From: an uncultured Bacteroides sp.
Lineage (GTDB): Bacteria > Bacteroidota > Bacteroidia > Bacteroidales > SM23-62
NCBI GenBank assembly: GCA_965603745.1
Contig: CBFDEE010000001.1
Coordinates: forward strand, 1 to 28,751
Length of the DNA stretch: 28,751 bases
Direction of reading: 5' to 3'
Within the stretch, counting starts at the first letter, position 1. Every line of letters starts with the position of its first letter. Position numbers and translations under genes: made by a program. Below the pieces are notes generated by a model that had not been told where the DNA came from, searched no databases, and saw only the letters and a list, made by a program, of their open reading frames with translations. This document shows, piece by piece, positions 25,923-28,306 of the stretch.

Positions 25923-26696
25923 TCAGATCTTTAAATCAAACAATGAAGCAGCATTTTTTGTAGTAAGTTCCGCTATGGTTTCAACCGGGACCCCGTGGAT
26001 CTCCGAAAGTTTCTCTGCAATATGGATAAGGTAGGCAGGTTCATTTCGCTTTCCTCTTACAGGAACCGGTGCAAGGTATGGAGCATCTGTTTCCAGGACT
26101 ATATGCTGCAGGTCAATCTCCCTGACCACGGCATCCAGTCCCGCATTTTTGAATGTCACAATACCTCCGATCCCCAGCTTGAAGCCATATTCAATGATTC
26201 GCTGTGCCTGGCCTGCATCTCCCGTAAAAGCATGGAAAATTCCACTGAGGGTATCGTCGTTTTCCTGTTCCATGATCCTGAACAGTTCATCGAATGAATT
26301 TCTTGCATGGATTATCAGCGGCAGACCGGATTCTTTGGCAAGCTTAATATGTTCCCTGAACGATTCCTCCTGTTGTGCCGAGTGAGTTTTATCCCAGTAA
26401 AGATCTATCCCGGTCTCCCCGATGCCCCAGTACTTCCGTGTACCGGTAAGTTCCCGGATCCGTTCGATTTCCTGTTCGTATTCATCGTTTACGGAAGTAG
26501 GATGCAGCCCGATCATGGGAAGGCAATTCTCCGGGTACTTATCCGCAAGGCGGTGCATAGCATTGACGGTTCTTCCATCGACATTGGGAAGAAGCATTTT
26601 TTCAATGCCCCTTTCCAGTGCGGAATTTACTACCCTGTCGCGATCCTCCCTGAATTCGCGAAGGTATAAATGGGTATGTGTGTCAATAAAAATCAC
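25923..26696 (-). CDS. tatD: TatD-family nuclease
   Basis: IDTHTHL, GIGETGID, IIHAR, IFHAF and LETDAPY. Start set at GTG 26696. Confidence 0.93.
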   Translation of the reverse strand: MIFIDTHTHLYLREFREDRDRVVNSALERGIEKMLLPNVDGRTVNAMHRLADKYPENCLPMIGLHPTSVNDEYEQEIERIRELTGTRKYWGIGETGIDLYWDKTHSAQQEESFREHIKLAKESGLPLIIHARNSFDELFRIMEQENDDTLSGIFHAFTGDAGQAQRIIEYGFKLGIGGIVTFKNAGLDAVVREIDLQHIVLETDAPYLAPVPVRGKRNEPAYLIHIAEKLSEIHGVPVETIAELTTKNAASLFDLKI

Positions 26697-26711
26697 CGGA
26701 TCCTGGCCGTA

Positions 26712-26719
26712 CAAATCTA
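26712..26719 (-). promoter_or_regulatory. -7 element TAGATTTG for tatD-ansA (a second candidate, TACTTTTG, is at 26763-26770)
   Basis: Exact TAnnTTTG matches upstream of the tatD GTG. Confidence 0.45.
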
Positions 26720-26770
26720 ACAAAAAATAGAGAGACCATGATTCGTATCTCCCCATGCATTCCAAAAGTA

Positions 26771-26967
26771 AAGACATGTTAAATCCAGTTTCATTTACGT
26801 ACTTCCGGCAAAGTTAAACCGGCGCTGCAAATTATGGGTGCAGCACCTGACATCGCAAAGCTATGTAGTGTCGTTTTAACAATCCGAAGGTGCCCATAAT
26901 TTGAAGGCGCCTTGTTCAACAGTGCCTTCAGTACGGTGAAAGAATGAAACGGGATTTTACATGCCTT
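26771..26967. ncRNA. Candidate structured RNA or palindromic element: 197-nt imperfect rod hairpin
   Basis: Ten nested stems paired by hand (about 58 bp), including GTTTCATT/AATGAAAC, CGTACT/AGTACG and CAAATTATGGG/CCCATAATTTG. Family not identified. Confidence 0.55.
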
Positions 26968-28306
26968 ATACTGCTCCCTGGGCGAGCATGGCATCGGCTA
27001 CTTTTACAAACCCACCGATGTTGGCTCCCTTAACATAATTAACATAGTCGCCTTTTTCAGTCCCGAATTTAACACAGGTTTCATGAATGCTCTTCATGAT
27101 CTGCTGCAGGCGGGCGTCAACTTCTTCCCTGGTCCAGGGTAATCTCATGGAATTCTGTGTCATTTCCAGACCGGACACTGCAACGCCTCCGGCATTGGCG
27201 GCTTTACCGGGACCATACAGGATCTTGTGCTCCAGGTATACTTCGATAGCCTCGGGTGTTGATGGCATATTGGCTCCTTCGGAGACAACCTTGCATCCGT
27301 TGCCGATGAGTTTTTCAGCATCCTCTTTATTGATCTCATTTTCCGTAGCACTCGGAAAGGCGGCATCTCCCTTGATGGTCCACGGCCGTTTTCCTTCATG
27401 GTATTCACATCCGAATTTTTCCGCGTATTCCTTGATCCGGCCCCTGCGGATGTTTTTGAGATCCATAACCCAGGCCAGTTTTTCATTATCGATTCCGGCA
27501 GGATCATAGATAAAACCGGCCGAGTCGGAAAGTGTAACCACCTTGCCGCCGAGTTCATTGATCTTTTCTGTTGTGAACTGGGCCACGTTCCCGGAACCGG
27601 AAACCACGCAGGTTTTGCCTTTAAGGGAATCCCCTTTGGTTATCAGCATTTCTTCGGCAAAATAAACCGCTCCGTACCCGGTAGCTTCCGGCCTGATAAG
27701 GCTCCCGCCCCATTCGATTGCCTTTCCCGTAAGTACGCCGGTAAACTCATTACGGATCCTTTTATACTGACCGAACAGGAAACCGATCTCACGGCCGCCC
27801 ACGCCAATGTCGCCGGCTGGGACATCTGTATTGGGACCAATATGGCGGCAGAGCTCCGTCATAAAACTCTGGCAGAAGCGCATGACTTCGTTATCCGATT
27901 TTCCTTTGGGATCAAAGTCCGAACCACCTTTCCCGCCACCCATCGGCAGGGTGGTCAGGCTGTTTTTGAATACCTGTTCAAATGCCAGGAACTTCAATAT
28001 TCCGAGATTTACCGTGGGATGGAACCGTAGTCCCCCTTTATAGGGACCAATGGCAGAATTCATCTCAATGCGGAATCCCCTGTTGATCTGAATTTCACCC
28101 TTGTCATTCAGCCAGGGGACACGAAACATGAGAACTCTTTCAGGTTCGGCGATTCTCTCCAGAATCCGGGCATGTTTGTACCTGGGATTTTCTTCAATAA
28201 ACGGGATGATGGATTCGGCCACTTCATGAACGGCCTGGTGAAACTCAGGTTCTGCAGGATTTTTCGCCTGCACTTTTGACATAAACTCCTGTACTCTAGG
28301 ATCCAT
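26966..28306 (-). CDS. gdhA: NADP-specific glutamate dehydrogenase
   Basis: YKGGLRFH, MGGGKGGSDF, DVPAGDIGVG, RPEATGYG, VSGSGNVAQ and KAANAGGV. Confidence 0.97.
   Translation of the reverse strand: MDPRVQEFMSKVQAKNPAEPEFHQAVHEVAESIIPFIEENPRYKHARILERIAEPERVLMFRVPWLNDKGEIQINRGFRIEMNSAIGPYKGGLRFHPTVNLGILKFLAFEQVFKNSLTTLPMGGGKGGSDFDPKGKSDNEVMRFCQSFMTELCRHIGPNTDVPAGDIGVGGREIGFLFGQYKRIRNEFTGVLTGKAIEWGGSLIRPEATGYGAVYFAEEMLITKGDSLKGKTCVVSGSGNVAQFTTEKINELGGKVVTLSDSAGFIYDPAGIDNEKLAWVMDLKNIRRGRIKEYAEKFGCEYHEGKRPWTIKGDAAFPSATENEINKEDAEKLIGNGCKVVSEGANMPSTPEAIEVYLEHKILYGPGKAANAGGVAVSGLEMTQNSMRLPWTREEVDARLQQIMKSIHETCVKFGTEKGDYVNYVKGANIGGFVKVADAMLAQGAV

Follow-up and report, generated by a model that had tools for sequence, protein, structure and literature searches.

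The gap between gdhA and tatD is filled by a rod-shaped hairpin of 197 nt, which raises the question of whether a structured RNA or a palindromic repeat has come to lie between the two genes. A first-pass annotation of the window, by which we mean the whole 28,751-nt stretch of DNA, had considered both. Minimum free energy folding turns positions 26771-26967 into a single rod on either strand. The plus-strand fold reaches -74.1 kcal/mol against a mean of -46.0 +/- 3.7 for dinucleotide shuffles (z -7.57), the minus-strand fold reaches -81.4 kcal/mol (z -8.49), and on neither strand was any of 200 shuffles as good. The hairpin is therefore real, and the stems that had been paired by hand are essentially those of the minimum free energy fold. 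The explanation that we consider probable as a whole is that the window hairpin belongs, with an internal deletion, to a family of quasi-palindromic DNA repeats of 150-250 bp that are interspersed throughout this genus of marine-sediment Bacteroidales, and that the upkeep of the family depends on template switching.

The minus strand is the sense strand of both gdhA and tatD, and the names proposed earlier for the genes of this region hold. The upstream gene, gdhA (26966-28306, minus strand, from the ORF list), encodes a glutamate dehydrogenase (Pfam ELFV_dehydrog, 8e-91), the downstream gene (25923-26756, minus strand) a TatD-family hydrolase (Pfam TatD_DNase, 4e-76), and profile annotation places an asparaginase gene next after tatD. 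The hairpin begins within the gdhA stop codon (26966-26968, minus strand), where the first-pass annotation had put its start. The longest tatD open reading frame starts with an ATG at 26777, inside the outer arm of the hairpin, and the alignment with tatD homologues begins only at residue 9 of this longer frame; because of this late start of the alignment, the true tatD start is most likely the ATG at 26754-26756. Automatic annotation would probably make tatD too long by 7 codons. Seven nucleotides upstream of the probable ATG lies TACTTTTG (26763-26770, minus strand), which follows the Bacteroidetes -7 box pattern TAnnTTTG. The box reported at this end of the hairpin is thus present, but its pattern occurs 16 times in the window against 19.5 expected and is not enriched over chance, so the box carries little weight alone and TACTTTTG can be named only as a candidate tatD promoter. 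A scan of 26600-27100 for terminator-like sites, limited to stems with loops of 3-8 nt, returned none; no terminator-like tail follows the hairpin, and the short GC-rich stem with a T run that marks an intrinsic terminator is not found there.

A read-through transcript of gdhA and tatD would carry the rod of -81 kcal/mol. It is plausible that such a rod could act as a candidate processing site, as a stabiliser of the gdhA 3' end or as a partial barrier, with tatD then served by TACTTTTG, and it is possible that it might provide a candidate RNase III site or otherwise uncouple tatD from gdhA on a shared transcript. Logan contigs from a sediment run contain both halves of the hairpin in their gene context (26689-26896 and 26900-27500) with a break at the apex, which shows that both halves exist in context and nothing more; the window may stem from the sample of this run. 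The window is found in metagenomic runs from marine or other sediment and from soil. One contig (26870-27142) extends without mismatch from the gdhA 3' end through the first arm to the apex; it comes from a run labelled metatranscriptomic and flagged as probably DNA, as are both runs with that label, and contigs cannot reveal transcript ends. At the far end of the window, the start of the contig (positions 1-60) holds three tandem copies of the 15-nt unit TTCATGCGAGCCCCG.

The hairpin has many relatives. The genome to which it belongs (G000) is a 2.6-Mb bin of 412 contigs that is 83% complete, and iterated nhmmer and covariance-model searches found about 25 related loci in it, 13 of them full-length and about 12 partial, all intergenic, with three copies at contig ends. 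Such a number of dispersed copies speaks against a single-locus non-coding RNA, and together with the empty sites in congeners described below it bears out the option of a palindromic repeat. The gene contexts of the copies are convergent (five), tandem (eight, in both orientations relative to transcription) or divergent (two), and at least one gene 3' end adjoins the element in 13 of 15 contexts. When 12 copies are aligned, identity is highest at the apex (CCTGAC-stem-loop-stem-GTAG), declines toward the base and is nil outside a core of about 156 nt. Every one of the 14 congeners searched has matches to the covariance model: 22-45 in five of them, counted over both strands, and few in the rest, with an approximately 20-fold spread of copy number within the genus. 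Two or three sister genera have the apical module only, five genomes of another genus have none by the same model, and the exact apical pattern occurs in three Bacteroidales bins only among the species-representative genomes. Furthermore, the ten longest strong-fold rods in a genome-wide, fold-based census of palindromes are all family members; a k-mer version of the census gave mostly chance matches, and a BLAST version was too strict. All of the genomes are metagenome bins and palindromes tangle assemblies, and the family is also found inside megabase contigs of other species. One copy of G000 (G000:C181:56-237, L009) has its apical module inverted relative to its own surrounding stems. We read the family as a REP/ERIC-like DNA palindrome with an unusual, partly demonstrated mode of growth. 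What sets the family apart is a conserved centre within outer arms that are mirror-image copies of neighbouring DNA.

Seen against its relatives, the window copy has a simple anatomy. Its outer arm on the tatD side, AAGACATGTTAAATCCAGTTTCATT (26771-26795), pairs with the arm on the gdhA side, AATGAAACGGGATTTTACATGCCTT (26943-26967), which takes in the final two bases of the gdhA stop codon. The AAGACATGTTAAATCCAGTTTCATT arm is locus-specific, has no second copy in the genome and is missing from the empty orthologous sites. Between the arms lies the conserved repeat core (26802-26933, plus strand), which measures 132 nt here and about 156 nt in intact copies; it is recognised by covariance model R1 with 100.3 bits (E 3e-26) and aligns with 11 other copies of the genome. 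Within the core, the apical module CACCTGAC-stem-loop-stem-GTAGTGTCG (26844-26873, plus strand) is the best-conserved part of the family, where invariant columns cluster, and it is also found alone inside other stems, for instance at C86, C60, C24 and C84. The difference in core length is due to an internal deletion of 24 nt, whose junction lies at 26845-26846 between two CACCTGA direct repeats. In alignment A2 the window copy alone has a gap at columns 46-69, where the other 11 copies have CCTGAGGATTTGTTAAACAAGNCA, and from its position between direct repeats the gap reads as the signature of a slippage deletion. The deletion removed the 5' partner of TTTTAACAATCCGAAGGTG (26874-26892, plus strand), so that this orphan 3' arm, paired in intact copies, is unpaired in the minimum free energy fold and forms what had been described as an asymmetric bubble. 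The GCACC/GGTGC switch that had been proposed beside it is no more than the normal pairing of the next stem. Bubble and switch are remnants of the deletion and not designed features, and the window hairpin is an old, decayed family member in a formerly tight gdhA-tatD junction.

That the junction was formerly tight can be seen in other species. In G009 the gdhA stop is directly followed by the tatD ATG without any element, in G007 about ten bases separate the two genes, and the gaps are also short in sister-genus genomes (L041, L042 and L045). The element is an insertion, because gdhA and tatD abut in some congeners. The gap of G008 contains a related element in the opposite orientation, and in other species the gap is occupied by shorter hairpins made of the same middle stem, or by a palindrome of unrelated sequence. 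This second, unrelated family (TACTGAAATTGATTACACAAG...GTGTAATCAATTTCAGTGTA) occupies gaps L032, L033, L040, L037, L034 and L028, which are the gdhA-tatD gaps of G010, G014, G005, G001, G004 and G003, respectively, and three of these six also hold a short relative of the window family that consists of the middle stem only. The gdhA-tatD gap is a hotspot for hairpin elements. Filled and empty sites are not confined to this gap: a copy behind an HD-domain gene is found in the six genomes that are most closely related and is missing from eight, a copy at C147 is common to at least five species and one at C68 to four. Species that share orthologous copies have a coding identity of 74-88%, and the insertion between gdhA and tatD is old.

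Two other accounts of these sites were given up. Insertion into pre-existing hairpins was dropped, as the empty sites are abutting genes without a hairpin. Contigs C290 (the end of L027) and C316 (L208) of G012 were taken up as an inverted gdhA end or a close empty site and discarded as tangled paths. In both, an element arm leads into the gdhA 3' end in reverse complement; the palindrome has made the assembly path fold back and collapse, which is a warning for repeat calls in bins. A scan of metagenome contigs found no strain-level empty site, the best TatD match being 62% identical.

The family can be shaped by selection on an RNA or by processes that act on DNA, and the pattern of pairing changes is informative about both. 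Across 40 copies from seven genomes, 95.5% of the alignment cells are paired and 36 of 42 pairs have changed on both sides. None of 500 shuffles reaches these values, and slid registers give 32-48%. Covarying pairs are therefore found, but they do not imply an RNA origin, as a DNA palindrome gives the same signal. Swaps of GC for CG and of AU for UA are common, while one-sided changes that pass through a wobble G-U pair are few, and in tandem contexts the sense strand folds better than its complement in four of ten cases and worse in six. Both observations weigh against the earlier view of G-U pairs as a mark of RNA-level selection. At the C68 locus the asymmetric core has the orientation CCTGAC in G011 and G012 but GTCAGG in G000 and G002, and despite this flip the flanks and outer arms are homologous in the four species, with arms that are complementary in each. 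No conserved promoter box is found in the core, and canonical terminators adjoin some copies (C68 and C111). We favour a DNA-level reading because copies occur in both orientations, the fold has no bias toward the sense strand, wobble changes are rare, the core has flipped at C68 and the apex is inverted at C181. There is no sign of RNA-level selection.

Additional evidence comes from the outer arms, which consist of 14-40 complementary bp, are unique in the genome and, at one and the same locus, are homologous between species and complementary in each. At three other loci they derive from flanking DNA. The outer arm at C129 is formed by the last eight codons of the HD-domain gene (KEIGPEIGL*), which are conserved in all 14 orthologues, including those at the eight empty sites, where the convergent genes lie 1-10 nt apart with no element between them. 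On the far side, from the microhomology AGGAAA onward, the sequence recurs in inverted form (15 of 16 nt, then weaker) and provides the convergent gene with a new stop, RK* instead of RKNL*. At G008:C74 (L077, 1435-1467 and 1713-1737) one arm encodes the end of a T9SS sorting domain whose match to the Pfam profile reaches the last residue, and the inverted copy forms the last ~10 codons of the phosphofructokinase (PFK) gene, well past the PFK domain, which suggests that this protein tail was created by growth of the palindrome. At G008:C27 the arm corresponds to the last 12 codons of an M19 dipeptidase. Since they hold true gene ends with an inverted copy opposite, the arms at C129, C74 and C27 are inverted duplications of one flank, neither carried by the element nor left from prior hairpins. 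In all three key cases the repeats are imperfect and lie within contigs that run into different genes on each side. For the window copy the source of the outer arm is untraceable, and nothing homologous to it occurs at the empty sites of congeners.

The cores behave differently from the arms. In a model-based alignment, each G000 core is nearest to a G000 paralogue (79-83% identity) and not to the orthologue at the same locus (56-72%), a sign of concerted evolution. Cores therefore swap sequence between loci of one genome, or are replaced where they stand, while outer arms stay local. Such an exchange also explains the gradient of conservation from apex to base. Template switching is known to correct imperfect inverted repeats to perfect ones (PMC5941160) and to homogenise arms and invert spacers (PMC8604942), and inverted duplications centred on palindromes arise in E. 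coli without SbcCD and RecA (PMC3315005). We propose that an ancestor of G000 acquired the element between the originally abutting gdhA and tatD, and that strand or template switching inside the hairpin, as a process on DNA, has since maintained the palindrome and lengthened it. Whatever changed in one arm would be copied into the other, by which pairing would be kept without wobble intermediates, and the asymmetric centre could flip in the same way. Synthesis that continues past the base of the hairpin would copy one flank, inverted, onto the other side and could thus generate the locus-specific outer arms. Template switching accounts for the upkeep and growth of the palindromes and not for how the core first reached some 25 loci. 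Ectopic template switching could carry it to new loci without an enzyme of its own, the alternative being an unrecognised recombinase or transposase.

The genomic background may be permissive for such events. Among the G000-G014 genomes searched, no SbcD (TIGR00619 over cut-off), SbcD_C domain (PF12320) or SbcC (TIGR00618) was found, a result of profile searches in partly incomplete genomes, while B. thetaiotaomicron, run as a control, did yield SbcD_C. G009 has stop-ridden SbcC-like fragments only. An apparent lack of SbcCD would remove the main nuclease that acts on long hairpins; this apparent lack is genus-wide and bears no relation to copy number, and because it does not track with copy number it would be a permissive condition only. 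A more far-reaching possibility, which we put forward tentatively and regard as doubtful on present evidence, is that the family persists free of any transposase, its hairpin core seeding snap-back or template-switch synthesis that might turn neighbouring DNA into longer palindromes, rewrite protein tails and stops, flip the core and spread it ectopically, all of which the lack of SbcCD may allow.

Among the explanations that compete with a DNA repeat kept up by template switching, a multi-copy structured RNA has very strong covariation in its favour. A cis-acting 3'-UTR or intergenic element, or a family of small RNAs, would be selected as RNA, for instance for a part in processing, stabilisation or termination, with the DNA palindrome as mere template, which also suits the persistence of copies at orthologous intergenic sites across species that differ by about 20-25% in coding sequence, the gene 3' ends that adjoin most copies and the better fold of the sense strand in the window copy. 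This explanation is nevertheless improbable, as copies lie in both orientations relative to transcription, with a flip even at one orthologous site, the sense strand is the better one in only four of the ten tandem cases, and two to three copies sit between divergent genes. Further points against it are the scarcity of wobble intermediates, the core devoid of a conserved promoter box and the canonical terminators beside the copies at C68 and C111, which contrast with the window hairpin and its missing tail. Moreover, a search of Rfam at E<=10 found nothing for the window copy, which leaves the suggested likeness to 6S RNA without a counterpart there, and a search at E<=1 found nothing for five full-length copies. 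Orientation independence would agree with a site that the host selects as DNA, for example a REP/BIME-like binding or topological element for gyrase or IHF in which the asymmetric apex is the protein target. Long persistence at orthologous sites could indeed reflect host-level selection for a function, and the apex is conserved in sequence (CCTGAC...GTAG) as well as in pairing. We regard such a host site as unlikely, though, since copy number varies about 20-fold in the genus, the window copy does without 24 nt of the core, other copies are degenerate and no protein partner is known.

The family is dispersed and intergenic, its presence varies between species, and its members are palindromic and of MITE-like size, so that a classical MITE deserves consideration: an element derived by deletion from an insertion sequence, bounded by terminal inverted repeats and a target-site duplication and mobilised in trans by the transposase of its parent. 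Sites filled in some genomes and empty in others are indeed found at gdhA-tatD, at the HD locus (six filled, eight empty) and at C68. The details that a MITE should have are of another kind here: the ~25-bp terminal repeats envisaged by the first-pass annotation are unique to the locus, the ends are the least conserved part of the element and differ at every locus, and it is the apex that is best conserved. The copies examined have no direct repeat at their flanks, and comparisons of filled with empty sites show no recognisable target-site duplication in species that are too diverged for base-exact junctions. A non-exhaustive search of G000 for a parent insertion sequence found neither a split nor a long version, and no longer element with the same ends was found. 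In the near-complete genome of G009, copies 2-3 kb apart enclose only MeaB, a thioredoxin-like protein, DapF and an alkylation-repair enzyme; an autonomous element was rejected, as only housekeeping genes lie between these nearby copies. Profile searches found no match to the Y1 transposase of RAYT and IS200 (PF01797) in G000, G011, G012, G002 and G009, which have 22-45 model matches each and are five of the six genomes with most copies. The same profile is present in seven of the 10 other genomes searched, including G008 (25 matches) and several with low copy number. The DUF559 nuclease is absent as well, no dedicated transposase is evident, and we consider a classical MITE quite improbable. 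Finally, an artefact of the assembly would have to be suspected in any metagenome bin, since palindromes tangle assemblies, as the G012 contigs illustrate, three G000 copies lie at contig ends, and perfect outer stems could partly be artefacts. As an explanation of the window copy it is scarcely credible: this copy is imperfect and is flanked by two different genes within a contig of 28.7 kb, both of its halves recur in context in Logan contigs, and the family recurs inside megabase contigs of other species.

For annotation, these results mean that the hairpin should be masked as a repeat and not listed as an RNA gene, and that the tatD start belongs at 26756. More generally, the outer arms offer cases from nature in which a palindrome has carried a copy of a gene end to its other side and has thereby given rise to new stops and new protein tails, such as the PFK tail from the end of a T9SS sorting domain and the RK* stop that replaces RKNL*, while the cores flip and homogenise over evolutionary time. 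If the proposed mechanism is true, it would link template-switch mutagenesis, as known from the laboratory, to how an entire family of repeats arose and is kept up, and the genus would become a test case for the tolerance of long palindromes in bacteria without recognisable SbcCD.

Comparison with known systems places the family near several of them. REP and REPIN sequences with their RAYT transposases (PMC3116915, PMC3733652) are likewise non-coding, extragenic and hairpin-forming, occur in tens of copies mostly behind genes, and show compensated stem changes; the GTAG beside the apical stem of the present family is a resemblance only. The REP unit itself is a 20-40-bp hairpin tagged with GTAG or CGTC, single or in an inverted doublet, and conserved at its ends (PMC3116915, PMC3733652), whereas the present element is one rod of 150-250 bp that is conserved at the centre and lost at the base. 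In addition, the five high-copy genomes lack Y1/RAYT, and the outer arms come from local flanks. The ERIC/IRU elements of Enterobacteria and the Correia/NEMIS elements of Neisseria are imperfect palindromes, 100-160 bp long, that lie between genes in transcribed DNA, have variants with internal deletions and can alter mRNA processing or stability. Their termini are conserved, and Correia elements are accompanied by a TA duplication. Compared by description, the present family shares the intergenic imperfect palindromes and the internal-deletion variants with them and differs in its locus-specific termini, at which no duplication is seen. Template-switch mutation and palindrome-centred inverted duplication (PMC5941160, PMC8604942, PMC3315005) have been described for single loci or laboratory constructs and not as the life-style of a dispersed family, but it is with these processes that the family shares the homogenisation of arms without wobble intermediates, the inversion of the spacer, and inverted copies of the flank that are centred on the palindrome and have microhomology at the junction.
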